A stretch of 46,354 nt of DNA from Elusimicrobiota bacterium (GCA_028869495.1 JAGWRY010000285.1:1-46354); one strand, 5' to 3'. Positions 4,993 to 46,354 are shown, counted from the stretch's first letter. The notes: generated by a model not told the origin, from the sequence alone. Program-made: numbers and translations.

Positions 4993-6279
4993 GTGCCGGC
5001 ACTCGTGGTCGTGGGCGCCCAGTGGGGCGACGAAGGGAAGGGGAAGATCGTCCATTTTCTGGGCCGCGGCGCCGACTGGGTCGTCCGCTACCAGGGCGGC
5101 GACAACGCCGGCCACACGGTCGTCTTCGACGGCCAGAAGTACGCGCTGCACCTGATCCCGTCGGGCATCCTTCAGCCCGGCGTCAAGAACGTCGTCGGCG
5201 ACGGCGTCGTCGTCAACCCGCTCGCCTTCGAGGGCGAGGTGCGCATGCTCGAGCGCCGCGGCATCAAGGTCCGCGGCCGCCTCTTCCTGAGCCTGTCCGC
5301 GCACGTGATCCTGCCCACGCACGTCTACCTCGACACTCTGCGCGAGGAGGGCGGGCGCGGGATCGGCACGACGAAAAAGGGGATCGGCCCCTGCTACGAG
5401 GACAAGGTCGCGCGCATCGGCATCCGCGTCGCCGACTACCTGGACGCGTCCTCGTTCCGGAAGCTGGTCCGGCAGAGCCTGAAAGTCCGCGCGGCCGAGC
5501 TCACGAAGGTCAAGCCTCTCAAGAAAATCGAGGCCGAGGTCTTCGCCGGCTACGAGGCGCGGCGGCGCTTCCTCGCCCGCTTCGCGGCCGACACCGGCCT
5601 CCTGCTCGACGCCGCGCGGCGCAAAGGCGCGCGGATCCTGCTCGAGAGCGCGCAGGGCTCGATGCTCGACCTCGACCACGGCACCTACCCGTTCGTCACC
5701 TCGTCGAATCCGGTCGCCGGCGGCGCCTGCGTCGGCGCGGGCGTGGGTCCCACGACGATCGGCGCGGTCAACGGCGTCACGAAGGCCTACACGACGCGCG
5801 TGGGCCTGGGCCCCTTCCCGACCGAGGTCGAGGGCCACCTCGCCCGCTACATCCGCGAGGTCGGCAAGGAATACGGGGTGACGACCGGGCGTCCGCGCCG
5901 CATCGGGTGGCTCGACCTGCCGCAGCTGCGGGCCGCGATCCGCATGAACGGCCTGACCTCGTTGACGATGACGAAGCTCGACACGCTGTCGGGCGTCCAT
6001 CCGATCAAGGTCTGCGTCGGCTACCGCCTGCGCGGCAAGAAGATCGCCGAATTCCCGATCGCGCGCCGCGACCAGCTCGACGTCCTGCCGGTCTACGAGA
6101 GCTTCGCCGGCTTCTCCGGCGACCTGAAGGACGCGCGCAAGTTCTCCGACCTGCCGCTGGGCGCGCGCGAGTACGTGCTGGCCGTCGAGCGCAAGCTGGG
6201 CGTGCCGATCCTCATCGTGTCCGTCGGGCAGAGCCGCGAGCAGACGATCGTGCGGGACGCGAAGGCGCTCTGGGGCTGA
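4993..6279 (+). CDS. purA: Adenylosuccinate synthetase
   Basis: GTG start at 4993 is preceded by GAGGGGGGA. Hallmark PurA motifs are present: VVVGAQWGDEGKGKIVHFL, YQGGDNAGHTVV, GTTKKGIGPCYEDK and GVTTGRPRRIGWLD. Confidence 0.95.
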   Translation: MPALVVVGAQWGDEGKGKIVHFLGRGADWVVRYQGGDNAGHTVVFDGQKYALHLIPSGILQPGVKNVVGDGVVVNPLAFEGEVRMLERRGIKVRGRLFLSLSAHVILPTHVYLDTLREEGGRGIGTTKKGIGPCYEDKVARIGIRVADYLDASSFRKLVRQSLKVRAAELTKVKPLKKIEAEVFAGYEARRRFLARFAADTGLLLDAARRKGARILLESAQGSMLDLDHGTYPFVTSSNPVAGGACVGAGVGPTTIGAVNGVTKAYTTRVGLGPFPTEVEGHLARYIREVGKEYGVTTGRPRRIGWLDLPQLRAAIRMNGLTSLTMTKLDTLSGVHPIKVCVGYRLRGKKIAEFPIARRDQLDVLPVYESFAGFSGDLKDARKFSDLPLGAREYVLAVERKLGVPILIVSVGQSREQTIVRDAKALWG

Positions 6280-7225
6280 CGGCCGGCGCGGCGTTCTGCG
6301 GGATCTCCTCGAACAGCTCCGTCAGGCGCGCGCGCAGCTTCGCCTCGTCGTCGGCGCCGAGGTAGCTCTTCAGGCGCGCCTCGTCCTCGTCGCGCTCGAC
6401 GACCCGGCCGCCGACGCGGACGTAGCGCAGGACGTCCTGCCCGACATATTCGTTCTTCTTGAACAGAGTCAGCTTCAGCGCGTTGTCGCCGGCGTCGAAC
6501 TTCCCATTGACGGGGACCACGCCGAGGAGCAGAAGGTAGCCCCTGCGGATGACCAGCGGCACGCCCGTCGCGACCGGGTTGACCATGTCCGGGTTGCGGT
6601 CGGCCAGGAACGACCTGTCCGGGGCGAAGAACGCGTAGTTCTTGAAGCGGTAGGCCGGGCCGTAGCGATGGAACGACGGATCCAGGATGTAGACGTGGTC
6701 GGGCTGGGAGAGGTCGGTGATCAGGATGATGAAGTGCTGGCTGGTCCCGGCGGGGAAATAGCCGGACTCCGACGTGCGGATCACCTCGGCCGCGTAGCCC
6801 TTGCCGAGGATCTTCCTGATCCTCGGCAAGGTGTAGGCGGCCAACTCGCCGCAGATGCCGTAGCGGTCCTGGTCGAGGGTGACGTTCCCCGCGGCGTCGT
6901 AGGTGCGGATGTTGCGGATGGTCCAGGTCCTCTTGGCCGGGTCGATCGCGATCCGGATGTCCGGCGCGAGGATGGGGATCAGGGCCGAGTAGCGCAGGGG
7001 GGCGATGATCTTCTTGATCTCGGCCGCCGCCGGGGCGCTCGGGTCGACCTCGGCCCAGCCCAGGTCGTCGGCGAGGTTCTCCTGCGCCCACTGCCAGGCG
7101 TTCCAGCCGGCCAGGGCCGCGAGCGCGAGGGCCAGGAGCGCGGACCCCAGACGCCAGCGGAAGGCGCTCCTCTTGAGACGGAGGAGGGAGTCCTCGAACT
7201 CCGCGCGCGGGATCTTCTGGTTCAT
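6212..7225 (-). CDS. Membrane-anchored hypothetical protein with a transglutaminase-like Cys-His-Asp motif arrangement (putative cysteine peptidase fold)
   Basis: 337-codon ORF with good G/C third-position bias. It has an N-terminal TM/signal anchor (WRLGSALLALALAALAGWNAW). The core reads GICGELAAYTL..(39 residues Cys to His)..QHFIILI..(18 residues His to Asp)..YILDPS. That order and spacing are typical of transglutaminase-like/papain-like Cys-His-Asp folds. The last ~22 codons run antisense through the purA 3' end. Confidence 0.65.
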   Translation of the reverse strand: MNQKIPRAEFEDSLLRLKRSAFRWRLGSALLALALAALAGWNAWQWAQENLADDLGWAEVDPSAPAAAEIKKIIAPLRYSALIPILAPDIRIAIDPAKRTWTIRNIRTYDAAGNVTLDQDRYGICGELAAYTLPRIRKILGKGYAAEVIRTSESGYFPAGTSQHFIILITDLSQPDHVYILDPSFHRYGPAYRFKNYAFFAPDRSFLADRNPDMVNPVATGVPLVIRRGYLLLLGVVPVNGKFDAGDNALKLTLFKKNEYVGQDVLRYVRVGGRVVERDEDEARLKSYLGADDEAKLRARLTELFEEIPQNAAPAVSPRAPSRPARSSARGSARRTR

Positions 7226-7242
7226 GGGCGGGACGTCCGCGG

Positions 7243-7251
7243 ATTATATCA
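7243..7251 (-). promoter_or_regulatory. Candidate extended -10 element (TGATATAAT read on the minus strand) for the 6212-7225 gene
   Basis: The reverse complement of 7243-7251 is TGATATAAT. It lies 18 nt upstream of the ATG at 7225, which would give a very short leader. I saw no convincing -35 element. Confidence 0.3.
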
Positions 7252-7353
7252 TGGCGCGCGGCGGCCGATTGTGCTATAACCCCTGTCGCGTGGGACCGAA
7301 GAGCGGCCGTGCGGACTTTTTTTGCGCCCCGTCGAGCGGGGACTCCCTGGGTC

Positions 7354-7381
7354 TTGACAAATCAAGGGGGTCTGCTATACT
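7354..7381 (+). promoter_or_regulatory. Near-consensus sigma70-type promoter (TTGACA, 16-nt spacer, TGc-TATACT)
   Basis: TTGACA lies at 7354-7359 and TATACT at 7376-7381, with an extended -10 TG at 7373-7374. This is an A/T-rich consensus island in an otherwise very GC-rich intergenic region, placed about 15-20 nt upstream of the riboswitch-like element. Confidence 0.65.
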
Positions 7382-7397
7382 CGACGTGTCGGACGTT

Positions 7398-7483: not shown

Positions 7484-7490
7484 AAAACCG

Positions 7491-8048: not shown

Positions 8049-8062
8049 ACTCCCGCCAACCC

Positions 8063-41900: not shown

Positions 41901-44900
41901 GACGCCGACGTACCTGTACGTCGCCTTCGACGTCTCGCCGTCGGCGAAGTTCTCGCACCCGGCGCTGAACCCGCCGAACGAGGTCGTCGGCGTCAACGCG
42001 CCCGACCCGACGCGCTTCCATCTCCTGCCGGCCACCGCCGGGCACCAGGCGATCTTCGTCGCCTCGAACACGGTCGCCAGCCCGACCTTCGTGCTGACGC
42101 CGACGGTCAACACGGTCAAGGTCCAGTTCGACCAGCTGTCCGGCAACTACGCGTACCAGAACGACAAGAACGTCGCGATGCTGCGCATGACGATGAACAC
42201 CGACCGCAACACCGCGATCGTGCAGAAGATCCGCTTCGACCGCATCGGCACGTCCGGATCGCTCGACAGCGACATCCCGGTCCTGAAGGTCTGGGCGGAC
42301 TCGAACGGCAACGACCTGTTCGACACGGCCGACTCGACGCCGGGCGCCGCCGGCGACTACCCGTACCTGCTCTCCTACGGCAACGAGACCTTCAGCACCG
42401 GCACGGTCACGATCGCGCTGAAGAAGCCGATCCTGGTGACGACGTCGCCGGCCGCGTACTTCGTCACCTACGACATCTCGCAGTTCGCCGCGGTCGGCAA
42501 CGGCGAGGGCATCCAGGTCGCGGACCCGAGCTACGTGACGGTCCAGGTCCCGAACGCCGTCTCGTTCACGACGCCGACCTTCCAGTCGAACCCGTACCTG
42601 GCGATCAAGAAGGTCACGTCGCACGTGACCCTCGGCGTCAACGACATCGCGCAGAACGTCGTCGGCGTCACGCAGGCCGAGCAGAACGTCGGCTTCCTGC
42701 GCTTCAACCTGACCACCGACATCGCGCTCGCGCCGTGGCGCTCGATCCGCCTGGAGCGCGGCGGCGGCTCGCAGGACACGAACTACCCGCTGGGCCGCAA
42801 CACGAACGTGAAGTTCGTGCGCGTGTACAAGGACATCAATCAGAACGACACGCTCGACTCCGCGGACATCGACATCTCGGAGGTCAACACGACCGTCGAG
42901 GTCGCGGTGTCGAGCGCGACCCAGCCCCCGTTCGACCTGGTCGTCGCCTCGACGCAGGGCTTCCCGATCGACAACGTCGGCAATCCGCTGCCCGGCTGGA
43001 TCTACGTGAACAACGCCGAGCTGATGCAGTTCTCCGGCCCGGGCTGCCAGACCGCGTTCACGCCCGGCGTCGACAACTTCACCGGCAAGCCCTGCTTGAA
43101 CATCGTCCAGCGAGGGGCCGTGCTCGGCTCGACATCGACGCCGCACCTGGACGTCTCGGTCGGCGCGCCGGCGCGCAAGGTGGACCTGTTCGACCAGACC
43201 AACGACGCGAACGTGCAGACGCTGGTCACGCTGAACTCGGACCAGTACATCGGCCCGACCGCGCAGACCTTCTTCGTCGCCTACGACGTCGGGGACGCGG
43301 CCGTCGCCAACGACCTGATCAACGTGACGATCCGCGACGCGTCGTGGCTCGGCATGCCGGCCGGCGACATCGTGACGCCCGACCTTCGGGTCGGCGTCAC
43401 GCGCCCGAACCCGCTGGGCACCAGCACGACCAGCTATCCGTTCGTCGGCAGCAACGTCGCGATCAGCCCGATCACCCTGCAGGTCAGCGGCTTCTCGGCC
43501 GCGCCGAACGGCGCGGGCCAGGGCGACGCGAACGTGCCCGTCCTCCAGCTGGACATGCAGACGACGCAGAACTTCGTCGACGTCGCGCAGATCCGGCTCG
43601 ATCAGCTGGGGACCTTCGCGACCTCGTCGGTGACCTACACGGGAGACGGCGACGCGTCGGCGGTCAAGGTCTGGCTCGACAACGGCGACCGCGTGTTCAG
43701 CCCGCTCAACGACACGCTGATCGGCCAGATCGCGGTCTCGACGAACGGCGCGTTCTCCAACGGCGTCGCGCTGGTCAACCTGAACGTGAACTCGATCCCG
43801 TACCTGACGGTCTCGACCTCGCCGGTCGTCCTGTTCGTGTCGGCCGACATCGGCTACACGGACCGCACCGGCGGCTCGACGCTGAACCACTCGCTCGGCT
43901 TCGAGCTCGCGAAGTTCAACGACCTGCTCGCGCCCAACGGCGCGCCGCTGGTCGCGGCTCCCGACCCGGTCCTCCAGCCGCCGATCCAGTCGAAGACCCT
44001 GCTGATCGCGCCGCTGACGGTGCCCGCGGTGTCGATCAGCTCGGCCCTGCCGCCGGTGATCGTCACGCGCGCCCAGCCCGGCGTGCCCGCCGTCGCCGTC
44101 GGCTTCCCGGCCTACGCGGAGCTCAGCCTGTCCTGCAACAACGGCAAGGACCCGTCGAACCCGCGCAACAACATCTGCCTGGACGCCAACAAGGACCCGA
44201 TCCCGGACATGACGAAGTGGATCTGCCCCGACGGCACGCCGTGGTGCGGCAACCCGGGCTGCACGATCACGAATTGCGGCGGCTCGCCGCCGCTGATCGA
44301 CGTCAACGGCGACGGGCGTCCGGACAACTTCTCGATCGGCGAGAGCACCGTGCCCAACCAGGTCTCGCTCCTCGGCGACGGCACGCCGTCGACCGACATG
44401 ACCGGGACCGGGATCCTGGACGTCGACGTCAACCAGGACGGCATCCCCGACGTCGTGCTGTTCTCGCCCGGCTCGACGAAGCCGCAGTTCCGCATCAGCC
44501 TGGATCCGGCCGACCCGGCGAACCTCGCCAAGACCGCGCCCGACCCGGGTCAGGGCCTGGCGCCGACGTCCTGGGCGCCGAGCGCCAGCCAGCTGAACTT
44601 CAATCTGCCGATGATCGGGACCTCGGGCTACTACCAGGTCGCCGTCGGCCAGTACTACGACGATCCGATCGGGGTCACGCACAAGTGGTCGACCGTCACC
44701 GTGACCGGCGTGGCGGGCCTGAGCGCCGCCGCGTTCCGGGCGAAGGCCGTCGGCGCCCCGATCACGTCGGCGACCCTGAACCAGCTCGTGCTCGGCGTTC
44801 CCGACGTCACGCGCCTGACCCAGGCGCTGGCGCAGGACACGACCTACTTCACGGTCGCCGACGCCTCCGTCCTGCGCCTGCCGGGCCTGGTCTGGGTCGG

Positions 44901-45804
44901 CAGCGAGATCATGCGCGTGCAGCTCGACGGGAGCGTCAAGAACCAGCTCGACGTCATCTACCAGGCCGGCGACCCGCCGCCGTACGACGGACGCGGCCTG
45001 CGCGGATCGGCGCCGATCTCGCACACGTCGGGGGAGGTCGTCTCCGACAACGCGGCGATCCTGTTCGCCCAGTACGTGTCGGCGCTCGGCGCGACGTCGC
45101 CGCCGCAGGCGATGTTCGTCTACCGCGTGGACCCGCTCGCGCCGACGACGCCCGGACAGGCGACGCCGCTCGAGCAGGGCAAGCCGACCTACGCGGTGAA
45201 GTGGACGCCGTCGAAGCAGCCGGTCTCCGGCGTCTCGCAGTACGAGGTCCAGGAGCGCGGCGGCGACCCGAAGGACCTGGCCGCCAACGTGATCTGGCGC
45301 ACGATCAACATCATCCCGTCCCAGCTGACGACCTACAACGTCGGCGACCCGACCTACCCGGGCGAGGCGCCCCGTCCGACCGGCGACTACTTCAGCTACC
45401 GCGTCCGCGCGATGAGCGGCGCCGGCGTGCCGTCGGCCTGGTCGCCGGTGGCGCCGGCCGCCAACACCGGCCAGACCTCCTCGATCATCTCGGGCGTCAG
45501 CAACTTCCCGAACCCGTTCGACTCGCGCAAGGGCGGCAACGAGGGCCGCACGCAGATCGCCTACACGCTGAACGCCGACGCGGACGTGACGATCTCGATC
45601 TACGACGAGCTCGGCTATCTGGTCAAGACGATCGGCTGCGGGGCGGGCACGCAGGGCGGGCAGGCCGGCATGAACTTCGTGCCGTGGGACGGCCGCAACG
45701 ACGCCGGCGTCCTGGTCGCCAAGGGCGGCTACATCGCCCGCATCCGCGTGAAGTCCCCGGGCGGCGAGGCGACCGCGATCCGCAAGATCGGCGTCATCCA
45801 CTGA
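8854..45804 (+). CDS. Giant secreted repeat protein (12,316 codons): putative surface adhesin/fibre
   Basis: One uninterrupted frame with strong G/C third-position periodicity throughout. The track ORF starts at 8668, but that stretch overlaps the HEAT gene. The plausible starts are ATG 8854 (ATGA overlap with the upstream stop) or ATG 8845. The protein has a signal peptide, modular Ig-like repeats, an FN3 domain and a T9SS-type C-terminal domain. Composition is Thr/Ser/Ala/Gly/Asn/Val-rich, and cysteines occur almost only in close pairs. Confidence 0.9.
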   Translation: MSERSASSFSRRAAKAAAAALLLAAAGLLLRSRPAEATPSTVDLSVNSSYANARQVFKNDWGYWVFYNGGVNPTDFSYAFSPDGVTWTPEGTVFHTTTNNTFNETSVWYVAGTSTAYSAAGSAAADTNGRNIDPIWINKGTVNADGTISWGNEVKYTYGAAVAGRNGDIYTQQPCGVAYSNPSGGTPTLFVGTEGKQAGRNTWGAIGMSLNAGSLAYGNAASPGRGANTAGYVHLSMVPVENSGTSAQALLLFYASGSFYTYRYNTSNNSMNTEQNPLSTTIANNYNAAATMIDNPDSPGEVHIAYIDANGNLNYKRRASGGTYAGPYTLTSAGTDGTASATPVENPSIGLVKLGAAYEVYIVYQSTAGTLSYFVGPSTATSAANFTQVRDWEVDTLGSVQWPQTPQTMTVSPDPLGVAYTDASGNVSFDTIITSTYPAPTITSAYLQNPNFYLTSSTFTLVVNGTGFLNFGGTKYTHGAILQGGASQSGVSVTSTTYVSSTQILIYGTLVSPSGSYDVRVTNSDSQYAVLSSTFSVPPPTLTGLWDQDGGLVSGGIEPVIPEGVARSRQLTLVGTNFEHWSTDSASVTVSGTGISVTSTSYVSPTRFVAYLNVSTAAAAGTYGVTVVNADNQASGMVSSTFTVTAPSATLQWPLPGLGTILNNGVYYSSGVDVISGQASFTPNSGQTSLLTSQVRISSADGTVWNGAGFVNAAFGFPFPASENQWQNASAASPWQYAGWPNNATDQQDNATYSISTRALTGDQGWSVPYSSFTFRIDRSPPTAGVASPVTGGAVNSIPIVLLSASDYGIGVSTIEVNIQDVNDHAWNGTAWNATAGAQWLPVGQFATPGNPESAALPSGPYLLPTWTDGTTYYFQLRSTDGLGQFATTARYPVIYDVTAPTVTVTAPTMSVSSATPNWVNSVTAIAGTVSDNVTDTHDPRKLYVQIADLSGTFLEPDLVTTTNTAASATNGYWFIPLDNGANNSWSLNLAGAPFVLGDEYRVAVYVCDGAGNCTGGDGQNISVGDYDGSATDPPPAFIGFFKFDGNPPRSGRIFPTDSARPNAFGGPYSGSPVTSLDTLYGTAVDGVGESGVQREEYQLYDSSTNAYWFSTSLAPESSAYGHSLPGFYSLNVGQQAPWNVAGTTTTPAWQVWEATGIPWTSYVPSIEGNYFAFYSRAVDFANNFEVSPSSVGFIFDESSPTTGVSYPSALTYSQQLTTISGTSLDQPASNAGLFDLHVGIQRLSDGQWWTPGAGGSWNATRNDFAQPMAVGVSTWSFSLPLAFWTSIGQADHFSLYAWARDNVQPETFSSTPSVTNVESSTTLKLAFNYEVVPPSSTISSPVDQVWYSSTSPSDLPQVAGTANDNPAVNDAGVASMQVEIRDENTCPSCQYWNETTKSWQGTSVFNTVGFINPNWNFPMTNLTPNLTSGHVYRVRSKARDASVDVNGLPNGTYESPPDIVQSQQQTPTPYIDTHFFFWDTTPPTSISTFPANGATVNAVPDVAGTVTDGPGSFNAGIGTTYVAICQDSAGSIDYTHCLTAVSGGSWLAGPTWFQASPGPDWSLNLPSVPWSTNSFYHVIVRSTDSVNNMEVPLAAATNSSDHVRFQYTGGATSGHINSPSPTDTTFPFYTPIALTTLSGTAQGNSGVQIQLEDTDDALYYDGTNWVAVSTWVPNLPSAIVTGNWSYTFGGTWETNHNITANLRVCNALGTSCSATLDTENFVMDSSAPTITVGWPPSPYANAAEVRTASGTVVDPTAPGQSTSLNTGSVHFRIVRLKDNDEWSVPLSTFVAPPGTDLTATPLGGGLFDYTTTYMSSNLMFEDGYQYQVKLYAADKATNAGSLAGSPFRYDVSYPTATMTVPVQGQYLNSLATIAGTMADTPPNLSDSNQAASGVAQVQVLVQNLTPGSPSRNNYYDETTHGFNDFSPHWINATTYASTFTYTDANLDAALVSGSYSIAVRAIDAAGNVQYDFSTPGSSFTVRMDKDAPTIALTQPSLPAYTPAAAAAAGVQGTAADPVVGGVASGLLTGGIDVQLWYLQAGTSYYWTGSTFTATITTEPANGTTWNLTSPPTAIQYAWPGDMTFYARARAHDASVLADGTVSPSTGNVSGWTPVTSFIVDGTPPVSTMTGITDGSFIPSLSSLAGTANGVLSGLQDVQVRITTNPATGPDWNGSAYTFAGVPIWNSATAPLTNWTYSSLSGAFVDGQKYYLYSRAIDNAGNMQTTPTAYAVTIDATKPLIGISFPNGAGNPPYSNNVESVRPSTYVAGTVSDPGALASGPAQVWLAISSGTPGAAGNSWWSDATRSFSLGAQPLGAPVYSTQVYLSGNSWQYAPSQLGPALVDGVNYYVYAYAVDVAGNSTSGSPALQNFLYDVSRPTSTVSVPLNGGNYNASLTQLSGAAVETGSNPSGVYKVYVAVQHTAGGLAPLAWWNWSTQAFDPSLGATPAFPGLGWAQVASTTVSGLTTLAWSTAVPAGMLESSATYVVAPMAEDQATNQQANPTQAGAGATFRYDTQAPTATITTPSLAVQYYNASTLGQMTGAADDQLYGASGLASVQILLKLETSGAYWNGGTSGTSADWDGTGTGYTQWRTVTGLSSWTQAYPPTSTMESRRLRLWVRATDNAGNTSATPTQTQLTNNQNADGSAALDFYYDTLPPLSSVTYPPTASNFAPTTISGTAADQDAILEPSGLKTVYLRLLKSDGTYWNLFTPGWTGTGLFDNTGVSGSLNPWSYSFPGGTFQDGYKYTVNSSAIDFALNQENAYSTYTFVVDLTTPTSAVSWPSDGAYVSSATVVVAGSADDLFCDFHGAQCVPGQRSFESGILPSSVTVAIADISVSTNWWDGSAFASASPVWFAGSFAGPASSGTWTWTAPTLTTNHFYKVVSRVADAAGNLQNVVSTNSFVYDTTPPVSLATAPTGTISGISAIYGTASDAAPGKLSVVRLSIQETGGTGAAHINDYWNGSAWQASLVELSSGVVGPLISGTTYAWTMDASAVAWDDQSNYAVRARAVDAAGNVEAAHGTDDITFSLQTPPASVTLTQPPGPDGQQYGPNSAVPVTAITGTALNARPVDGIQLVLQRLTSPTSYWYDPTASWTNVSTTYTPVNVSGGNWSQSLNSPYVVDNASYSLTVTPYNTADIAGTPVTRVYYFDKTVPLAAITGPAAAPCAGADACLKSLSTIAGTATDPGSVAPTSILYSGLKYRLKDNVSGQYWNGTAFQAAAADLTTDPGAFNQVGATYNWSTSTLAGASLQDGADYTILAHAADEAGNDQLAEASMAKFTFVYDTTPPTGFMVQPSSGEVYLNLSTISGTSSDPGGTYANNKKSDVKTVFLQIYDPKNDICWNESSSQFNAPCPHFFDTASSAPWTYSNAALTPLLASGRAYTITAEAVDNAGNVQSVFGVPTSSRTLYVDKNPPLAAFAQPVDGAAYQSGALNGGSALSGTAADPEAALYPGNDALQDDQAVIWYLSGGTSYYYTGVVGSNGTKFSSNTVESASWQSLIGTDTWKMIFSGADWAPAVSGTDTRYYAKVRATDNARDVSGAIVGNTGSTFSPGTSLVSFIVDDTPPQSAVTTPAPGSFIQSLGAISGTSNSDLSGAATYYFRVWYVVAGSSYYWTGSGWGPANVQTQLPIQVTGSTGTVDWTYPGTLPGQSAPTITQPDNTTYGLAIQAQDKAGNLETPTTAQVVLDRVGPSIGISTPMAAAPDYGAARPLATLSGTTFDQPAGTQKVELNISEVSDSTILYWDGSVWNTSGPNWVVATGTNPWTYPAPTWIGNKQYHVQARATDNAGNLSPSEPIIAFVYDVNVPSTTIAVPNTPYYPLSWQGTALSGTAVDWLNNPTVEAKSGLAAVQIAITDPSGNYWNGAAFQPAPVWRYASTTTADPSSWQYPPSNPAGDVLPTWQDAQNYTVRSRAIDQTGNIESPGQSYTFTFDAQAPTTTITDPISGQYATFFALSSGTYAAEAGGLSQLLIAVQDKLGNWWNGSAWGAFNSATCWLPGTIYASSWTYTDAALKTFINDPVTNTVPKSYTFYARGIDTAGNDNRGPAQPSSGGSTLFVDFFPPTAGFSHPANGATLAGNVVPITGTASDQALDTPTGVGIQGVQLKVIQIDSLNNHNYWNGSAWVGGDQGFNIGTTLTGGAQTVMTFNNLGTAIGEAAFADGYRYQVVAQAHDLLNQFDQTYATTTFLVDLSTPSVALVIPKVSYISTNTFTFSSGTFLDPVVGGNLPSGVSKVYVQVQDLSQPPHTVYPATYWDETSGWITDGTGKDVSTATVYQSTWSFASLPPDWTRADAAGADGRVYALRVYAQDAAGNTGTVNPDVTVASTTLVFDGTPPSSQVTSPANGTSSQSLATITGTAADVLVNSSSSDVKSVFVSVQDNQPGDPYYAHYWDASLGAWSAGTTVVWNPASYVPATGVWSIGFPGIDANLVNLSHYVIQSSATDNAGNAQYPTPGYAQVQFVPPPSVVTVGTPQSLQFYNNLVGFGGTANGVTTQVNLQLSRADTGQCWSGSVSIGWVACTNVSTATQVVYPAGGNWSYPQGGTVLPDWGTINNSSPTVTVWGTNYAGINGTQVPVQFFIDRSSPTSSVSYPVAGTFVSAPPTLTGASNDPYYGTTGAGVKTVSVHLKRLDLNYYWDVVTSTWVAAAVASTATYDSVAKTWSFASSTPTLTWMNGLTYSLDVFGEDKAQGGTSGNVETPAAPITFGYDDSRPTIYVSTPPAAPLRQGQATLAVWTGTAAVTAPDYLSKVQVRVYQNGSPNLYANPTGALAFNLPDSIPGNSDLAWFGATTSNGWLNWSVSSGVPWVEGSTYTIVARSVNAAGTVSVPYSSTTIVYDDLPPQSTVASPANGAYAAAPLPTLSGATSDQPSVNPGTVIEADVRLRRLSDGQYWNGFNGWTSTPYDMGLAFVSVYPSSWAVTTGEMATIRSYLTSGTSYYATVSALDDAAGGGNREAWGSPQSSTFTYDATAPLTSVSAPLDGSFVNALSAVGGTGFDNVLVSTVQISLQDATTGKCYETLGAAFDGACPGWFAAAGSTASWSYAIPGSPWTQADQYVLSSSATDQAGNLQTAVSSAAFTYDVAAPTAAVTTPAAGFLNVTQSSVTGTEIDSPAGILSVQLALSSAAGAGGWYNGTDFSGASAVRFDTSSYVLTTPNKWSWNLPANTTDGQNYLLRVYSTDKAGNSRSQDFTFLYDATPPVASITFPTNGGALSGSVVTISGGSSDPAGPGGGASSVSTVTVSIQSLTSGQCYVAGGGFTSPCPNDIPAAGIPGSWSYTPTPNPFASGSYYAVTARATDNAGNVQSVFAVGTSSVTFNYDTAIPTVAISSPAAGAGDRENAASLAQFIGSADETVPSNLAEVDLRVRKGGSVYADPANSLNFTQLNGDLAWFVANTTTTPAWTGWSVSSGTLMSFTAGTQYDVIARARNKAGTYSTTYATNTFVYDDQAPQTGVSAPGNASYVNSLSALNGTAVDQPTGTGGVVTAVNVRFKRLSDGYYWTGIPGSWSSTQLTLDALRGVQVFTSTWSLAAGNMPQPTDLTSGDSYYVTTSGIDDVQGGGNVEAWDSPRGSTFTYDVTAPRTSIVAPAGAYLNTLPSLAGSGFDNVLLSTVALNLEDATAGQCYNPAVNSFNLACPAWFAASGSTASWSFAFPTQPWTQAHQYVLSSSATDAANNLQTAVSSAAFTYDVLAPTAAVTTPASGFLNATQANLAGTATDSPAGVGSLRVALSSAAGAGGWFDGTSFASASPVPYSTNSYTYGAPDVWGASAQQASLTDGQNYLLRVFSTDRAGNQRSQDFTFLYDATPPVASIAFPTNGGALSGSVVTISGGSNDPVGPGGGASAVSTVTVSIQSLTNGQCYVDGGGFTSPCPNYIPAGGIPSSWSYTPTPNPFASGSYYVVTARGEDNAGNVQSVFVVGTSSATFNYDTAVPTVAISSPAAVAGDRENAASLAQFIGSANETVPSNLAEVDLRVLKVSGNVYADPANSLNFTQLNGDLAWFVANTTTTPAWTGWSVTSGTLMSFQAGYQYDVIARARNKAGTYSTTYATNTFIYDDQPPQTGVSVPSNASYVNSLPALTGTAVDYPTGTGGVVTAVDVRFKRLSDGYYWTGIPGSWSSTLLTLDALRGVQVFPSTWSLNSGNMPQPTDLTSGDSYYVTTSGIDDTQGGGNVEAWGSPRGSTFTYDVTAPLTAVAAPADGSFKNSVPSVGGSGSDNVLLSTVALSLQDATAGQCYNPAVNSFNKACPYWFAAQGSTASWNYTFFPSQPWTQAHQYVLSSSGTDAAGNFQTAVASGAFTYDVLAPTAAVTTPAAGFLNASNADLAGTAVDSPAGVGGLQVALSSAAGTGGWWNGTDFSGASAVPYSTNSYTYGAPDTWGASAHLASLTDGQNYLLRVFATDRAGNQRAQDFTFLYDATPPVASITFPADGGLAKGAVTITGGSSDPAGPGGGFSGASTIAVSIESVSNGLCYVFGGGFSAPCPNFIPAGGVPSNWSFAPSPNPFTNGASYIALAQATDNAGNVQSVFAAGISSATFTYDNTVPTVQIQIPATARERSLAFLAGTAADVIPTGLQNVQLRIRDASGLSRYYDPGNGSFDLNPATQGDLAWFVANTTSTPAWTWWSVSSGAIVYNSGDVYEVDARALNKAATYSTTYSTWTGSYDVDFPTTSVSLPVAFSTISALPTLSGALGDLPSNNPGTVSNVRVRLIRLSDGKYWTGGAWSAVPSVLDNTSGVSVFASSWTLSSNLPLNNDTLGGLQNGDSYYVTTSGLDDSNPGGNAEPYDTPVYASTFTVDLVGPTAAITGPNNGAVLSSLAQINGTAADALAGISNASQVQVAIGEVSPGNGCWNGQVTGGTFTATGCPIFYPITNPGLGGTFAGGVWSMNAPPLTTQYTYRVWVRGQDNATPVGNYTAAVNVSSITFTYNTNLPTIAIASPANGAALNAPFSVSGSASDNFGVAYASVAYQEADTNLYWDPASSTFSSVTPKFIGAALAGSAPNYTFTEAAPTPAASTGRHYNVYPYVENNAHTSQVGSAITITWDTTPPASAVVTPATATYRNALTLSTGTASDPGASASGVAGTQLQIRRVSDNICWNGGAWAAACTSAASWLTPAAGTSWSVNSGLPPVNNLTSGFQDGLSYEFTSRAYDYAANTQTALTANLVHIDLSSPTVAIGLPANGSVFNSLPTITGTAADAAPGQVAFPQVSICDIVLAKCWNGSAWANSSVDLWNVSPDSSSATDGSAFIWHYDTSGIVWPNRLNGLRVDARATDAAGNYTMTSSTFSFSNVAPQSEVSYPPLGNPTYSSMTAITGTALDTVLPVTSVGIKMWYLSGGTTYYWTPATPHWQNTDPGFSTINGANGPAATVFGWSYDSVQIPDFASPGTVNYPWKDGTNDGADGHEFHIITQAIDTAGNVQTVYSTHTFVFDNVPPTSAPTAPIPNAAYNTLTTLSGTMADDVSSVTAAEVSIEDVSSNLWFDGSSFASGVEKWLPILPSNLYQSSWVFTNGALSWATQHHYIVMSSATDSVGNVQTVVDASSFTFDTDPPTSQVTNPQDLLTYTDQKILLGNSSDPYGANGSGVYPGASPTWQAGKIEVAVFRDTAPLISGGPIAYPISDNTGFYWNGSTWVAAAGGPIWVPATFNDAFGNWQYAGLVCPNPNPTNQPCWVHGDPNIVWSRVTDNAGNLQSVIQAGPRFFISGIATHFSITVSSDPSTVGNLVQVTVTALDSQNNVASSYGSTVTFAMIDGTGGPETQGSSQVPDLTHGLPSNYQFTTGVGGDNGSHTFSIILRKAGSRILRVQDASNPSLAGSINLNTLNAAAQQILLIADTNASCDGGNQKPGPGIATSPVGRIGTPAQYAAGQSFYYCAEVTDAFYNLVPSSATTIWVSDDDPNNDSLSPDHSIVFTGSTTFTWTYVTADTTPGHTLTVSSAGVSNPAASPVPIVGAAATQLMALLPGETAVPGKFAVQPYGKTGTPSPVEAGRNYLVKVFSVDPYYNVDPTVAWPVTANVNSDSNTVVPAGQTLSGGEADFTFQPVTAGTQTVQAQTTSLLGSASTYYTPNPFQVWWSTPTKLQLIVAGQTADPGLAPYTANPTTGGRSVSAPATLTAGVTTTITVNLVDDYYNVTKGTTPFATQTSSFTMPLVQLDFLNDPNIQGRGFAPSPFQRTLNAGTTGFSFFAVTRNAGLQLRVSDTGLTGTTYSTDTVTGIPVIANTPVDLLARVPGETYAEGTAAGKTGAPSVLTAGTSYTVDVRAVDLYNNLAPDGRQVKLTANDVYANVPPAQALALGQTSFSNDVLPSAATGNLVISAVDNDVITPKLTTSAVSGITVVPNLPDRMIVLLNGQSLVPGKVVAPFGVTGVPVASTAGVTFNATVYATDLRYNVVNTVNKPSILVGSDDPFAGSLGSFAMTNGAAPATNLVLRTAGTRTLTAADGGGAPSLSAGASGGFTLLPNNPTKLRVLLPTETAVGGSTGNGRTGSAYSIQAGFSFNVEVDLADTFWNLTPGATQDVTLTSDDPYATIVPTSQVVSGSATFTVTLKRAGTSHLIAQMTNPLSLPTVAADTSTAITVQPGIPTRLLTILPGESFSQGSPTGKSGTPSVQTAGANFPVTVGVVDAYFNLVPGHAVDVLLGTPTDPYAPAIATAPVNVGLGYTAPMNVTLLTAGATHYLTAHDDSGSGLADDPQSSTFTVDAAAPVGLQLVLPGETAVPGSGDYPNGGITGSVSTPTAGVPFTATINLVDKYMNVYTTLGPNPPSYLYTSDPYDIDPSTASLINGSLPLTVTLVSKSTNTILQALPEGGAPAVCTGNPPTNACLAESPAADAGPFKVYASTAVALQIILPGETQHPGKCAQPACRPLGPTEGAPGVDGAPNSYIVGSPAITATVYLVDAYFNPVSEIPPGPNQDSNPVAVMPTVQLGFPLETNVSFSTPTAAALVDGSRQFTFSPLTANVLYHLSVSTTAASASSWPTSLSNDFAVYPGVAHHLAWSNLPSTVTAGVAFSGTLSAYDQFGNVLSTGPNAYSRNVTFTQVAPSADPNQAPVFSPTDNLTFSSATDGGVKNLLSFATLKNAGTDYVHAADTLSNAVNTAVPLYSSDPPILVNPGPPDSLKVAPTNDTVVSAGSSLSPGAQAITGQVTDAFDNPITAGATVFLQVVDTTGTPGHLALDYGSGAIDVGVSTQIVADSLGQIGGTPKIYYYVSSHAGDVARVWAGTMTAPGNLSPYIATQKDITGALTTTGGPESQIVFLSSPTSAVVGIVNAGSGASYVIQRLDDFGNVTTQSQTDLKLQIVQTAVHTLKGYALGTFGTVGDYGFRDATNSQFINAVSILSGQSQAAFQYHDKMSSYSGPSPSSNTAEDGRPGYWSLQVIEGSTTVKASTQLEMDPDNVIKVDFGNARNEETAGKVLDPAGVVAVFRPQLQDEFSNPTVATQTVTVTLSTVTRSASRVNDYAAFSLSSGAFAGSRFSAPAFFATTNTVTIPLGQYQTTFYYLDTTASEQYGYAGGTKPVLGLSAPGLFSSQQPVVVDPDRIDVIAVSTGAGQQLQAGVPSSVFSLETRDDYGNPSPVLSGQDDFGLGYVEMQLQSDSSGQVQFSTTTNSLSDFVSTSAIAYLPINQSTTNFYLIDTLLTNPGSTHTVTAAGITQPGWAVASASYTVISGPPAQIGWSTPPRRLIAGTTTQYVAGVATDTVVSAQLLDQYGNVTTSTSPYVIRYTSLGDQTFAGIDPSQVIVATAPSSFWQDIYTGHLDVVIPGGAGLSKAPMYFWSRLAGGATIYAQAILGGTNVFPQISQVSQITPGPATYLTLTHPYDANNPLKVGVPGTITVSAHDLFGNIATGDPQNGNYFTDTVDFGSSGSSTTVTLLDLTHSTTYHVFLSTEAGVFPNLGVVDTYQEVLKVSATDYDNPSIYGFTNDGSRTGLPAASVDRSSGDVELAGVVVTPVDLAPESDPPPTGPIPPTKISFGVTKKVLNQGDGMTPSSPDPIPMLRLSLDIQATNPSALTANLRSLRVQSRPEGNLNNTHIAELGLWYDSNGNGVFDPPPSGDTLIATGTYDGSGSWFFGDATWGETNIDLAYPAESTLTSSPKNYFLTVRVASTGYALNELPASFGLMLPTPSNITLSPASQVGMALNNFAVQTTTSDVEREPAQINVLPTDINAWWQPTSMALSTYPYVDQGAAAVGVLKLQVWADAFSGVLSQVVVNRAGTGPDSDISRVRLYLDTQPNQITVPGDGLFEPAIDKEIGEATFPPGDTHQTTVVISSPTGVNGTITTSTNTYFLVYDIDPSANPGDTIGINLFASNIIPLSGNGQIKPFSPIASTQVPVEATPDLVVLTDWDTQGTSSTTGLGVNSVASKLVQNDKNDVVAKLTLRANSGSASWTGLKLDRWLPSTVVGGSGSYNPLDAQINKASDVDNIKVWVDQNGDGLLDVSTDAQVSPLNTIVHNFPTAPLSAPLYSTGPLTGAEVDVTGILNMFPPDNPMPSDTFNRLIINDAQTDELQKEVVYCYGVDLTNNKYTNCKRGQEGTTPRDYAAGTIISGPARIPIESLIGGTGQAIGTSKTDYFVTYDLDPLATVSNQSFLGLAIPDTSYFQIIAPKELSTQNVGLNPIGLTQSFVSNLSEYPDAVHVVSTDTIDPSVGPYLQQKSTVAVAVLNLQTNVADALMRWILVTATGTATAGGQAAPDVDQVSLWYDATNSGVFNQATDVLVGTGTFGDYQGLPLVAQINMTTPVQIVTANRATQPQRYFIAYHISPTALPTDPITQQPRTLGVAVLATSLPQNSPTTDNQYLNALSLPNYYDPTSPLPYTSKMRAIIPAPQHLQVQATPVFSSSSGTFTAPILLNAIPTETAGQIDPFWLLSSTQGLPTPALGTTDYLLINDEIVGYTGFGAAPGTITGVIRGSLNTVPAAYSSGTYVSPTISQGDTNMAVLRLKLWSTQPDDVTPGFQIELSGLDLNRTLPIGMNGDDADLTSIKIYKSNDGTYHRDPVSGQDVSDVFLGASTFGAPPEAAGRVLVPINDPGLGAPGYALITSTPTYLYVAFDVSPSAKFSHPALNPPNEVVGVNAPDPTRFHLLPATAGHQAIFVASNTVASPTFVLTPTVNTVKVQFDQLSGNYAYQNDKNVAMLRMTMNTDRNTAIVQKIRFDRIGTSGSLDSDIPVLKVWADSNGNDLFDTADSTPGAAGDYPYLLSYGNETFSTGTVTIALKKPILVTTSPAAYFVTYDISQFAAVGNGEGIQVADPSYVTVQVPNAVSFTTPTFQSNPYLAIKKVTSHVTLGVNDIAQNVVGVTQAEQNVGFLRFNLTTDIALAPWRSIRLERGGGSQDTNYPLGRNTNVKFVRVYKDINQNDTLDSADIDISEVNTTVEVAVSSATQPPFDLVVASTQGFPIDNVGNPLPGWIYVNNAELMQFSGPGCQTAFTPGVDNFTGKPCLNIVQRGAVLGSTSTPHLDVSVGAPARKVDLFDQTNDANVQTLVTLNSDQYIGPTAQTFFVAYDVGDAAVANDLINVTIRDASWLGMPAGDIVTPDLRVGVTRPNPLGTSTTSYPFVGSNVAISPITLQVSGFSAAPNGAGQGDANVPVLQLDMQTTQNFVDVAQIRLDQLGTFATSSVTYTGDGDASAVKVWLDNGDRVFSPLNDTLIGQIAVSTNGAFSNGVALVNLNVNSIPYLTVSTSPVVLFVSADIGYTDRTGGSTLNHSLGFELAKFNDLLAPNGAPLVAAPDPVLQPPIQSKTLLIAPLTVPAVSISSALPPVIVTRAQPGVPAVAVGFPAYAELSLSCNNGKDPSNPRNNICLDANKDPIPDMTKWICPDGTPWCGNPGCTITNCGGSPPLIDVNGDGRPDNFSIGESTVPNQVSLLGDGTPSTDMTGTGILDVDVNQDGIPDVVLFSPGSTKPQFRISLDPADPANLAKTAPDPGQGLAPTSWAPSASQLNFNLPMIGTSGYYQVAVGQYYDDPIGVTHKWSTVTVTGVAGLSAAAFRAKAVGAPITSATLNQLVLGVPDVTRLTQALAQDTTYFTVADASVLRLPGLVWVGSEIMRVQLDGSVKNQLDVIYQAGDPPPYDGRGLRGSAPISHTSGEVVSDNAAILFAQYVSALGATSPPQAMFVYRVDPLAPTTPGQATPLEQGKPTYAVKWTPSKQPVSGVSQYEVQERGGDPKDLAANVIWRTINIIPSQLTTYNVGDPTYPGEAPRPTGDYFSYRVRAMSGAGVPSAWSPVAPAANTGQTSSIISGVSNFPNPFDSRKGGNEGRTQIAYTLNADADVTISIYDELGYLVKTIGCGAGTQGGQAGMNFVPWDGRNDAGVLVAKGGYIARIRVKSPGGEATAIRKIGVIH
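8965..10150 (+). other. N-terminal ~390-aa beta-propeller-like head domain with one Asp-box (S-x-D-G-x-T-W)
   Basis: SPDGVTW lies at 9094-9114. Blade-like strands recur: VHIAYIDANGNLNYKR, VYIVYQSTAGTLSYFVG, LGVAYTDASGNVSFDT and LLLFYASGSFYTYRY. The fold assignment is inferred, and the boundaries are approximate. Confidence 0.4.
10165..10790 (+). repeat. Two IPT/TIG-like Ig domains
   Basis: PAPTITSAYL..FTLVVNGTGF..VSVTSTTYVSSTQILIYGTL..GSYDVRVTNSD. and PPPTLTGLW..LTLVGTNFE..ISVTSTSYVSPTRFVAYLNV..GTYGVTVVNAD.. share the typical IPT/TIG strand pattern. Boundaries are approximate. Confidence 0.55.
23350..25170 (+). repeat. Five-module super-repeat, copy 1 (607 codons)
   Basis: Starts at YDDLPPQS. 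The unit order A-B-C-D-E is repeated in phase at 25171 and 26995. Modules D-E are about 90% identical at nucleotide level (by eye) to copy 2 D-E. Modules A-C are much more diverged. Confidence 0.85.
25171..26994 (+). repeat. Five-module super-repeat, copy 2 (608 codons)
   Basis: Starts at YDDQAPQT. Modules A-C are about 85-90% identical in protein (hand count) to copy 3 A-C. Several identical runs exceed 40 nt, e.g. GTGCGCTTCAAGCGCCTGTCGGACGGCTACTACTGGACCGGCAT. Confidence 0.85.
26995..28812 (+). repeat. Five-module super-repeat, copy 3 (606 codons)
   Basis: Starts at YDDQPPQT and ends before YDVDFPTT (28813). Its D-E modules are more diverged from copies 1 and 2. Confidence 0.85.
31921..38650 (+). 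repeat. Array of about 17 invasin/Big-like modules (~120-145 aa), many opening with an L-(L/V)-P-G-E-(T/S) motif
   Basis: There is a sharp switch of repeat type at ...RFFISGIATHFSITVSS. Recurrent motifs include LLPGETAVPGK..GKTGTPSPVEAGRNYLVKVFSVDPYYN, VPGETYAEGT..GKTGAPSVLTAGTSYTVDVRAVDLYNN and ILPGESFSQGSPTGKSGTPSVQTAGANFPVTVGVVDAYFN. Later units read ..AG..F..T(L/V)SA(Y/H)D(Q/L)FGN. The module count comes from hand segmentation. Confidence 0.6.
38651..44030 (+). repeat. Eight larger (~170-290 aa) beta-sandwich-like modules with a W-x-D-x-N-G-(N/D)-G-x-(F/L)-D type loop
   Basis: Each unit has ..(V/M)L(R/K/Q)L.., then ..I..(V/L)x(L/V)(W/Y)xDxNG(N/D)GxFD.., then ..YF(L/V)xYD(I/L)... Examples are LGLWYDSNGNGVFDPP (about 38899), IKVWVDQNGDGLLDVS (about 40060), VSLWYDATNSGVFNQATD (about 40873), LKVWADSNGNDLFDTAD (about 42289) and VKVWLDNGDRVFSPLND (about 43666). 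I do not know the family name. Confidence 0.55.
44134..44472 (+). other. Six-cysteine knot followed by FG-GAP/VCBS-like D-x-(N/D)-x-D-G-x-x-D loops
   Basis: The sequence reads CNNGKDPSNPRNNICLDANKDPIPDMTKWICPDGTPWCGNPGCTITNC, then IDVNGDGRPDNF and VDVNQDGIPDVVLF. Confidence 0.45.
45133..45459 (+). other. Fibronectin type III-like domain
   Basis: P..P..YAVKWTPSKQPVSGVSQYEVQER..TTYNV..YSYRVRAMSGAGVPSAWSPV shows the typical FN3 W..(Y/F)-x-(V/I).., Y-x-(Y/F)-x-V-x-A and S-x-W-S pattern. Confidence 0.6.
45475..45801 (+). other. T9SS-type / FlgD-Ig-like C-terminal sorting domain
   Basis: NFPNPFDS..TQIAYTLNADADVTISIYDELGYLVKTI..GMNFVPWDGRNDAGVLVAKGGYIARIRV..IRKIGVIH matches the pattern I know for Por_Secre_tail/FlgD_ig domains: PNPF..I.Y.L....V.I.IYD..G..V......G.....WDG....G..V..G.Y. 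It ends exactly at the protein C-terminus. Confidence 0.75.
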
Positions 45805-45829
45805 TCGACGACGGCCCGCGCGCGCCCCT

Positions 45830-45853
45830 CCGCCCCCGGCCGGGAGGCGGCTT
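45830..45853 (+). terminator. Weak GC-rich hairpin after the giant ORF stop (poor T-tract)
   Basis: CCGCC-CCC-GGCC-GGG-A-GGCGG is followed only by CTT. It is probably leaky if it functions at all, because the next ORF starts 28 nt later with its own AAGGA site. Confidence 0.25.
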
Positions 45854-45880
45854 GTGACTGTCAATAAGGAAAAAGTTAGA

Positions 45881-46354
45881 ATGGGAGCCATGACGGCGAC
45901 CCTGATCGCTCTCGCCGCGGCGCTTCTGTGCGGATCGCCCGCGGCCGCCGCGCCGGCCCCCGACCTCGGGGCGGCCGCCGCGCTGACGCGCTCCTCGAGC
46001 CCGGCCGCGCGCCGGGACGGCGTCCGCGAACTGGGCCGGATCCGTTCCGCGGCGGCCGCGGCCGCGATCGCGCCGCTGCTGTCCGACGGGGATTGGCGGG
46101 TCCGCCAGGCGGCGGCGGAGGAGCTCTCGACGGCGGGCGGCCCGGCGGAACTGCCGGCCCTGATCGGCGCCCTGAAGGATCCCGCCGCCTCGGTCCGCTT
46201 CGCGGCGGCCCGCACGCTGGGCGCCCTGCGCCGGCCGGAGGCCGCGGAGGCGCTCGCGGGCCTCCTCGACGACAAGGATCCCGCCCTGCGTCGGACGGCC
46301 ACGCGGGCCCTGGGCCGCGTCGGCGGCGCGGACGCGCGCGCCGCGCTGATGCGC
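45881..46354 (+). CDS. Second secreted HEAT-repeat protein (3' end outside the window)
   Basis: This ORF is not in the ORF track because it has no stop inside the window. AAGGA lies 9 nt upstream of ATG 45881, and the frame stays open to 46354 (158 codons). It has a signal-like MGAMTATLIALAAALLCGSPAAAA. HEAT-like repeats are present: DGDWRVRQAAAEELSTAG, DPAASVRFAAARTLGALR and DKDPALRRTATRALGRVG. Confidence 0.75.
   Translation, partial: MGAMTATLIALAAALLCGSPAAAAPAPDLGAAAALTRSSSPAARRDGVRELGRIRSAAAAAAIAPLLSDGDWRVRQAAAEELSTAGGPAELPALIGALKDPAASVRFAAARTLGALRRPEAAEALAGLLDDKDPALRRTATRALGRVGGADARAALMR

Follow-up and report, generated by a model that had tools for sequence, protein, structure and literature searches.

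What does a riboswitch for cyclic di-GMP (c-di-GMP) control when the longest gene behind it encodes more than 12,000 amino acids (aa), and which of its neighbours belong to the same device? The locus that raises this question lies on contig JAGWRY010000285.1 of GCA_028869495.1, from an Elusimicrobia bacterium whose genome was assembled from a metagenome. All 46,354 bp of the contig, with a G+C content of ~70% throughout, were analysed and are called the window below. A reading of it made from sequence only had proposed a c-di-GMP-gated giant-adhesin module that is not of the Lap type, and had suggested that a divergently encoded Cys-His-Asp protein might serve it as a processing or release protease. 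Every element listed in that reading is present at or near the position it had given; its labels 'transglutaminase-like' and 'T9SS-type' interpret these elements and are taken up on their own below. From comparison with related loci, we consider it likely that the window carries an Elusimicrobia operon in which a strong sigma-70-type promoter and a c-di-GMP-I riboswitch would gate the synthesis of a giant surface protein and its small partners, and which has been vertically inherited in Elusimicrobia, adjoining purA. The parts of this operon, their order, the conservation of that order and the structure of the leader RNA are direct observations.

A riboswitch-headed gene order beside purA

The features of the window are collected in Table 1. 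The same order, i.e., dprA, topA, xerC, a 315-aa gene, purA, riboswitch, small gene, HEAT-repeat gene and giant gene, was found on long contigs of five further lineages. A metagenome scan with an alignment of the small-protein family yielded 34 more loci. In 32 of these, a profile of the leader (nhmmer) matched immediately 5' of the small gene; the remaining two begin within the small gene and so lack the upstream DNA. The leader is also present in the related loci L002-4 and L014-18. The unit that had been read from a single contig, in which a riboswitch heads the genes for a small transmembrane (TM) protein, an exported HEAT protein and a giant Sec-exported protein, is therefore borne out in dozens of independent Elusimicrobia loci. 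The part of the proposed neighbourhood that did not survive this comparison is the divergent 337-aa gene, which is not conserved beside the operon.

Table 1. Features of the window, with coordinates counted from its first nucleotide
Feature	Coordinates	Strand	Basis or remark
Upstream genes: dprA, topA, xerC, 315-aa gene, then purA	4993-6279 (purA)		
337-aa membrane-anchored protein, locus tag KGM24_09215, not part of the conserved module	6212..7225	-	uncharacterised family
Sigma-70-type promoter, TTGACA-16-TATACT with TG extension	7354..7381	+	11/12 matches
c-di-GMP-I riboswitch aptamer	7401..7480	+	Rfam RF01051
Expression platform: 22-bp hairpin (7513-7571) and U-tract (7575-7579)	7513..7579	+	covariation
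Small bitopic membrane protein, 162 aa from GTG 7560 (185 aa from in-frame ATG 7491)	7560..8048	+	
Intercistronic GC-rich hairpin behind the small gene, no U-tract	8063..8089	+	structure conserved, sequence variable across lineages
Exported HEAT-repeat protein 1 (HEAT1), 215 aa	8210..8857	+	HEAT_2, 81 bits; signal peptide
Giant surface protein, 12,316 aa from ATG 8854	8854..45804	+	uninterrupted open reading frame, Sec-type signal peptide
C-terminal beta-sandwich domain, FlgD_ig / type IX secretion system C-terminal domain-like	45487..45801	+	PF13860, 36 bits
Exported HEAT-repeat protein 2 (HEAT2), cut by the contig end, start ATG 45890	45890..46354	+	HEAT_2, 91 bits; signal peptide

The head of the operon is sharply defined. 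No site resembling the promoter is expected by chance (0.0 in shuffles), both of its hexamers are invariant across six lineages, and it lies ~20 nt upstream of the aptamer, within the 175-bp divergent intergenic region that separates the 337-aa open reading frame (ORF) from the riboswitch. The claim that the c-di-GMP input is an RNA element is supported at the sequence level. The aptamer scored 59.6 bits against the RF01051 covariance model (gathering score 35; E 2.8e-9), and the orthologous aptamers of L002-4 and L014-18 scored 57-62 bits. Compensatory changes occur in both aptamer stems: pair 34/43 of the first stem is AU in 17 leaders, UG in 10, UA in 4, GU in 2, and GC and CG in one each, and the second stem shows double changes at pairs 63/80, 65/78 and 66/77. 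In all 36 leaders, the positions that correspond to Vc2 G20 and C92 hold G and C, respectively, the identities that specify c-di-GMP over cGAMP, and c-di-GMP is the predicted ligand. Overall, leaders share 82-85% identity among lineages in which the small proteins are only 40-65% identical.

The leader hairpin and the direction of the switch

Structurally, the expression platform is self-contained. Its hairpin begins 33 nt past the aptamer end and is followed by CCUGUUUUU; the Shine-Dalgarno sequence GAGGGG (7543-7548) lies in the hairpin loop and the GTG start codon in the 3' arm. Among 34 distinct leaders, 99.3% of hairpin cells are standard pairs and 8 of the 22 pairs show compensatory double changes, e.g., CG 27, GC 6 and AU 1 at one pair, and GC 26 and UA 8 at another. 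None of 500 shuffles reached any of the observed values, and slid controls gave 30-53% pairing. The U-tract coincides with codons 6-7 of the signal peptide, spelled TTT TTG, both of which are seldom used in the window (TTT in 7 of 452 Phe codons, TTG in 28 of 877 Leu codons). Rare codons in the U-tract together with covariation in the hairpin indicate that the RNA element has been selected as such, overlapping the coding sequence. By its sequence, the hairpin with its U-tract can act as terminator and translational sequestor alike. In the mechanism that we propose, an intrinsic terminator and a start-codon sequestor would be united in one very stable hairpin, built into the signal-peptide codons of the first gene.

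Other starts for that gene were considered. ATG 7553 has ideal Shine-Dalgarno spacing and was rejected, as G+C at third codon positions (GC3) is 0.55 in its frame versus 0.90 in the frame of GTG 7560; the invariance of ATG 7553 is explained by its place in the stem alone. An ATG in frame with the gene, at 7491 and right behind the aptamer, is kept in most lineages and missing from the most divergent leaders, and the indels near it, of 6 and 9 nt, are divisible by three. This codon may serve as an alternative start that has no Shine-Dalgarno sequence, in which case the whole hairpin would lie within the coding sequence.

Locus L081 departs from this layout. After approximately codon 21 of its small gene, the toxin gene hicA (PF07927, 69 bits) has been inserted on the opposite strand together with a putative hicB (3367-3925 of L081), and a stretch of ~75 bp that takes in the hairpin 3' arm, the Shine-Dalgarno sequence and the start codon is present in duplicate. 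As a result of insertion and duplication, the intact small gene stands 640 nt from the riboswitch and has only half of the hairpin, which makes L081 a natural uncoupling experiment.

In which direction does the switch work? The architecture tilts us, slightly, towards c-di-GMP turning the operon off. Binding would then favour the terminator/sequestor, and the operon would be made at low c-di-GMP. The hairpin is complete without any aptamer residue, and terminator and aptamer do not overlap; a separate, complete hairpin leans towards the usual OFF-switch layout. There is a candidate for the anti-terminator that an OFF switch would use: the aptamer junction GAGGUCGGGGCGCAAA is complementary to UUUCGCCCGGUCUC, which consists of the 5' arm of the hairpin and four conserved bases outside it. 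In 17 of 36 leaders this candidate is paired at all 14 positions, and over all leaders 92% of positions are paired; in three of six lineages, the nascent transcript has this pairing as its minimum-free-energy fold. Two results tell against it. Its covariation is not above control, since 92.0% of positions are paired versus a shuffle mean of 92.2% and 420 of 500 shuffles were as high, and its mismatches are uncompensated where the aptamer stem varies. Because the covariation is not above control, we give the direction only as a lean.

The same operon could have the opposite polarity, with c-di-GMP binding blocking the hairpin and turning the operon on, as would be expected of a biofilm adhesin and as in the Bc2/Cap system discussed below. 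We regard this as a serious possibility, if one with somewhat less than an even chance. The best-studied adhesins are usually induced by c-di-GMP (PMC4933901; PMC6200980), and the missing covariation of the candidate anti-terminator counts in favour of an ON switch. In addition, RNAalifold pairs the aptamer 3' tail and junction with the U-tract region at long range; these pairings require an unfolded aptamer and, in the absence of ligand, would strengthen sequestration. They use invariant columns only, however, and hence lie beyond the reach of covariation. Moreover, the hairpin is self-contained and set apart from the aptamer, which leaves a bound aptamer with no obvious route for blocking it, and among the leaders no conserved ligand-dependent anti-terminator that uses the linker was found; both in the window and in the divergent group, the hairpin of the linker is either different or absent.

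The giant protein and its proposed partners

In the proposed operon, a small bitopic inner-membrane protein would be followed by a periplasmic HEAT protein, a giant immunoglobulin (Ig)-repeat surface protein, a second periplasmic HEAT protein, a CHASE2 cyclase and a DUF3307 membrane protein. In the small protein, a signal peptide is accompanied by a conserved periplasmic segment of ~95 aa, the motif LPxPRPK and a TM helix, and CPEVLRC stands at the C-terminus. Its family comprises at least 169 clusters, every source-named match is labelled Elusimicrobia, and its members carry no Pfam domain. HEAT1 orthologues are HEAT_2 proteins in every lineage tested, and the HEAT-protein orthologues score 38-215 bits for HEAT_2. 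The HEAT1 stop codon overlaps the ATG of the giant gene as ATGA in the window, and by 4 or 8 nt in every lineage checked. HEAT1 is predicted to be periplasmic and would be translationally coupled to the giant gene; we infer that, in the periplasm, the giant protein is held, chaperoned or anchored by the small protein and the HEAT proteins. The HEAT1 N-termini (8210-8330 and orthologues) share a motif with an invariant Cys, YARTRN ... LFLACA in relatives and ARARYRTLILSAFCMACA in the window, which could be a lipoprotein-type signal instead of a plain signal peptide.

The giant ORF is free of stops from 8668 to 45804, and ATG 8854 or ATG 8845 are its plausible starts; the signal peptide is MSERSASSFSRRAAKAAAAALLLAAAGLLLRSRPAEA. 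Homologues in the same position have 12,630, 12,686 and 15,003 aa, and the gene is split in two lineages. The N-terminal domain is conserved among orthologues, and the protein is rich in Thr, Ala, Ser and Gly. It contains a long run of divergent Ig-like modules, with weak matches to Big_13, Big_3_2 and Big_3_3 between residues ~2,600 and ~5,800, and FG-GAP repeats lie near the C-terminus. By BLASTP self-comparison of the protein split into chunks, a ~600-aa super-repeat was found in at least three copies, 53-90% identical, at residues ~4,800-6,800 (window ~23250-29250); such a region readily collapses in assembly or recombines, and the real number of copies may be another.

The C-terminal domain (CTD) had been described as being of the type IX secretion system (T9SS) type, and this description holds in part. 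In its favour are the motifs PNPF, GGY and K-I-x-V-I-H, a beta-sandwich with PorU and PorZ among its best PDB matches, and a PorV/PorQ gene in a sister clade (below). By sequence, the domain matches the C-termini of Bacteroidota and Zixibacteria proteins and is weakly similar to the C-terminus of PorU (E 4e-6) and to that of a T9SS-dependent M6-like protein. Its structural model (predicted local distance difference test, pLDDT, 90.8) matched the folds of PorU (6za2; E 3.8e-5, 25% identity, root-mean-square deviation 3.1 A) and PorZ (5m11; E 3.2e-5), and those of FlgD and of the ScpA Fn3 domain equally well. What does not hold is the family assignment: formally the domain, i.e., the last ~100 residues, is FlgD_ig, as are all of its relatives by score. 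A CTD/PorV-type sorting step for the giant protein is plausible but unproven, as judged from sequence and model; by such a route, the protein would reach, or attach to, the outer surface through its C-terminal domain.

To compare the 3' side of the operon, genomes were scanned with the last 350 residues of the giant protein, which gave 17 Elusimicrobia loci: 13 in the window's clade (68-73% identity) and four in a divergent sister clade (42-55%). In the window's clade, an exported HEAT_2 protein follows the giant gene in 11 of 13 loci, so that the two exported HEAT proteins said to bracket the giant gene are found both in the window and among its relatives; HEAT2 of the window is 46% identical to its orthologue in L021. 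All 13 loci (L019-L030, L035) also encode a membrane protein with CHASE2 and Guanylate_cyc domains, i.e., a class III cyclase, as well as a DUF3307 protein. The cyclase start overlaps the HEAT2 stop, and the cyclase comes directly after the giant gene where HEAT2 is missing. Given their presence in all 13 relatives, the window operon almost certainly runs on beyond the contig end into genes for the cyclase and the DUF3307 protein, and the c-di-GMP-gated operon seems to contain a sensor cyclase that serves another nucleotide messenger.

In all four loci of the sister clade (L031-L034), the giant gene is followed by a gene for a PorV/PorQ-family protein (NF033709, 98.4 bits, cutoff 90) fused to TPR repeats. 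This was the only T9SS-type gene seen in the loci examined, in which T9SS core genes were not searched for. A membrane protein with FliG_M/FliG_C and TPR domains also follows in all four, placing a FliG-like domain outside a flagellar context and beside a CTD-bearing giant protein.

The longest interval inside the operon lies between the small gene and HEAT1 (8049-8209). In every lineage it holds CCAACCCCCC, followed by the GC-rich hairpin, whose sequence differs completely among lineages; past the hairpin, at ~8143-8178, lies a sequence-conserved element (CCGGCUUCCGGCAACCUUUCCGUAACCCGG in relatives). Possible roles are those of an attenuator, of an mRNA-stability element or of a processing site by which the amount of small relative to giant protein is set.

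Several points count against the reading of the locus as a single c-di-GMP-gated operon for a surface-sorted adhesin. Co-transcription of all its genes is inferred from spacing and overlaps. The hairpin and conserved element in the 161-nt gap could mark an attenuator or an internal start. The label 'adhesin' draws only on the Ig-like and FG-GAP repeats and on composition. As for the C-terminal domain, TIGR04183 (Por_Secre_tail) gave no match at E <= 0.01, generic FlgD and Fn3-like domains, such as that of ScpA, match its fold as well as PorU and PorZ do, and a T9SS in Elusimicrobia is unreported in the searchable literature.

The gap also invites a reading in which the riboswitch governs the small membrane protein only, while HEAT1, the giant gene and the genes downstream form a unit of their own that starts in the spacer. 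This spacer is the sole long gap in the cluster, a structurally conserved hairpin stands right behind the stop codon with a conserved element further on, and in L081 the hicAB cassette parts the riboswitch from the rest while the downstream genes are still intact. We nevertheless judge two separate units unlikely: the scan of 7100-9000 showed no promoter-like site other than 7354-7381, the spacer hairpin lacks a U-tract, and the small, HEAT and giant genes keep their order on one strand in every lineage examined. Such same-strand order, kept in all lineages, is the usual signature of co-transcription.

If the single operon is taken together with the OFF direction and the sorting step, a more specific picture emerges, which we put forward as a long shot. 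Elusimicrobia, which lie outside the Fibrobacteres-Chlorobi-Bacteroidetes (FCB) group, would mount a 12,000-15,000-aa protein by a CTD/PorV-type route with dedicated periplasmic partners, and c-di-GMP would switch it off at a terminator embedded in a signal peptide. Were this true, the giant protein would be a low-c-di-GMP device for motility, contact or prey/host capture, similar to SprB, and not a biofilm adhesin. The apparatus would be linked to a CHASE2 cyclase as the source of a second nucleotide signal, and its partner set, i.e., the CPEVLRC bitopic protein and two HEAT proteins, would be previously undescribed.

The Cys-His-Asp neighbour and known systems

The divergent 337-aa gene had been the basis for placing a release protease at this locus. 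Its product has one N-terminal TM helix and a domain predicted to lie outside the cytoplasm, and belongs to a family of 178 representatives at 50% clustering, which are uniformly ~300 aa and show no fusions. Cys125, His164 and Asp182 are invariant, in that order, across 52 diverse family members, and the motifs YGxCGELAxY, SHxxL and YILDPSF resemble a papain/transglutaminase core; in the AlphaFold model (pLDDT 83.7), C125 is the first residue of helix 125-143. Compared with BTLCP and transglutaminase-like profiles, as the sequence-only reading had advised, the product fell into no named family. The protein and 51 relatives matched no Pfam or NCBIfam family, including Peptidase_C93 (BTLCP) and Transglut_core, even at E <= 1-10; profiles of 12 and then 52 members gave nothing useful against PDB sequences; an exhaustive profile search revealed no bridge to a named family among 150 of the 178 members; and Foldseek with the whole-chain model returned no match at E <= 0.001. 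Weak Foldseek matches were to an arylamine N-acetyltransferase (4nv8; E 7.5e-3, probability 0.80, TM-score 0.27-0.32), vasohibin (6och; E 0.04) and phytochelatin synthase (E 0.5).

The distribution of the gene was more telling. Between purA and the riboswitch it occurs only in the window and in the L002-4 lineage (57% identity). It is not beside the operon in L014-L018, in any of the 34 metagenome loci or in any of the 17 loci compared at the 3' end of the giant gene. Relatives with 34-52% identity were found in six unrelated contexts, with neighbours that include an RND pump, Y1 transposases, a PAS kinase and patatin, a glycosyltransferase and CHASE kinase, and a beta-lactamase and DUF3313 protein. 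Judged from this distribution, the gene represents a lineage-specific insertion that separates purA from the operon, a chance neighbour and not a component. A neighbourhood without conservation in relatives, which the sequence-only reading itself had named as decisive against its proposal, is what was found for this gene.

The full earlier model, in which the 337-aa protein is a dedicated periplasmic LapG-analogue protease and the locus joins RNA-level with proteolytic control, accordingly appears very improbable to us. It can draw on the membrane anchor and exported domain, the invariant triad, and the fact that the sole coherent weak fold matches are papain-like Cys-His-Asp enzymes. In the window and L002-4, the gene and the operon also have a promoter region in common, and a distant relative in L011 likewise adjoins a c-di-GMP-type riboswitch. 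Against these stand the absence of the gene beside the operon elsewhere, the assorted neighbours of its relatives (pump, transposase, histidine kinases, patatin, beta-lactamase) and the lack of any Pfam, NCBIfam, PDB-sequence or significant fold match in the searches above.

Two side observations concern this gene. The riboswitch in L011 is of the c-di-GMP-I-GGC type (RF03167, 62.9 bits; 11209-11290) and lies between the distant 337-aa homologue, 258 nt upstream of it, and a Kelch-repeat ORF (at least 761 aa) downstream, with type II secretion/pilin genes and Y1 transposases nearby; we regard it as a curiosity. The 315-aa gene in the gap between xerC and purA (4035-4982) is 68-81% identical in all related loci and has no family assignment, with merely a weak UBA-like match (E 0.01). 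That it might be a displaced homologue of the 337-aa protein was considered and dismissed, as BLASTP showed no relation.

What the comparison corrects, then, is an over-reading: adjacency in a single genome hinted at a LapG-like protease, and comparative genomics shows that adjacency to be an accident of lineage. The operon itself offers entry points to the export and anchoring of >12,000-aa proteins in uncultivated diderms, to whether CTD/PorV-type sorting occurs outside the FCB group, and to an intrinsic terminator encoded within a signal peptide.

Among known systems, one that is close in outline is Lap. In the Lap system found in Pseudomonas fluorescens (LapA/LapD/LapG with the LapBCE type I secretion system, T1SS) and in its Dvh variant, c-di-GMP decides whether a giant adhesin is displayed (PMC3032545, PMC13090378). 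The locus resembles Lap in that a giant repeat-rich protein on a diderm cell is under c-di-GMP control, predicted in our case. The features that are Lap's own have no counterpart here: post-translational control by a LapD receptor and a BTLCP protease, T1SS secretion, RTX repeats and an N-terminal retention module. The earlier statement that the design is not that of Lap agrees with our findings, as the window has no T1SS genes, RTX match, or LapD-like or LapG-like gene. No LapD-type HAMP-GGDEF-EAL receptor was found in the window or in the flanks of related loci, and the last 999 aa of the giant protein gave no RTX/T1SS signal and matched FlgD_ig and FG-GAP only.

A second comparison is with T9SS cargo carrying a C-terminal domain, which includes the giant gliding adhesin SprB of Flavobacterium johnsoniae, and with the PorV shuttle. 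The giant protein resembles such cargo in its Sec signal, its C-terminal beta-sandwich with PNPF, GxY and K-I-type motifs, its size and Ig repeats, and the PorV/PorQ gene of the sister clade. It differs in coming from a phylum outside the FCB group and in having a FlgD_ig rather than a TIGR04183 domain, and the small TM protein, the HEAT proteins and the CHASE2 cyclase have no T9SS counterpart.

Proteins of this size have been noted before. The 'Archaeovorins' of Omnitrophota are giant proteins in which HEAT repeats are tied to extracellular parts (bioRxiv 10.1101/2023.11.21.568195), and a survey of huge proteins merely lists Elusimicrobia among the phyla rich in them (PMC11573180). These papers share with our locus surface proteins of >10,000 aa in candidate-phylum genomes; they report neither riboswitch control nor this operon, in which the HEAT repeats sit on separate small exported proteins. 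In the searchable literature on Elusimicrobia with c-di-GMP, giant proteins, T9SS or GEMM, we found no description of the operon.

The remaining precedents are riboswitch-controlled adhesins. The cargo of the Bc2 RNA of Bacillus thuringiensis is a sortase-anchored protein. Bc2 is a c-di-GMP-I riboswitch that controls a collagen-binding adhesin encoded by cap (cbpA) (PMC4933901, PMC7423583); it has been proven to be an ON switch, and its terminator overlaps the aptamer, with a terminated product of ~121 nt (PMC4933901). In both, the 5' leader of a gene for a surface adhesin carries a c-di-GMP-I aptamer with an intrinsic terminator, predicted in our case. In contrast to Bc2, the hairpin described here is a separate 22-bp structure that ends ~190 nt from the predicted transcription start, inside coding sequence. 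The cargoes also differ, as Bc2 serves an ordinary-sized Gram-positive adhesin (PMC4933901), and the riboswitch of the window would serve a six-gene diderm operon for a 12,316-aa protein.

The case of Clostridioides difficile bears on the protease as well, and provides a precedent for an adhesin with a releasing protease and no LapD. There, class II switches induce the adhesins CD2831 and CD3246, and repression of the releasing protease PPEP-1/ZmpI runs through a class I switch. Surface adhesins of this species are controlled by c-di-GMP at the RNA level (PMC6200980, PMC8610288). The C. difficile protease has its own riboswitch and a demonstrated substrate, whereas the candidate in the window is a non-conserved neighbour with no riboswitch of its own.

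Control of ordinary-sized adhesins by c-di-GMP riboswitches was already known from a few Firmicutes and Vibrio genes. In Elusimicrobia, an aptamer of this class stands at the head of an operon that is syntenic across the phylum and encodes one of the largest bacterial proteins, with accessory proteins and a nucleotide cyclase. By analogy, the operon would work most like the riboswitch-controlled adhesin genes of B. thuringiensis and C. difficile (PMC4933901, PMC6200980), and it differs from these Bacillus and Clostridioides cases in phylum, cargo size, accessory genes, its coding-embedded terminator and possibly polarity.

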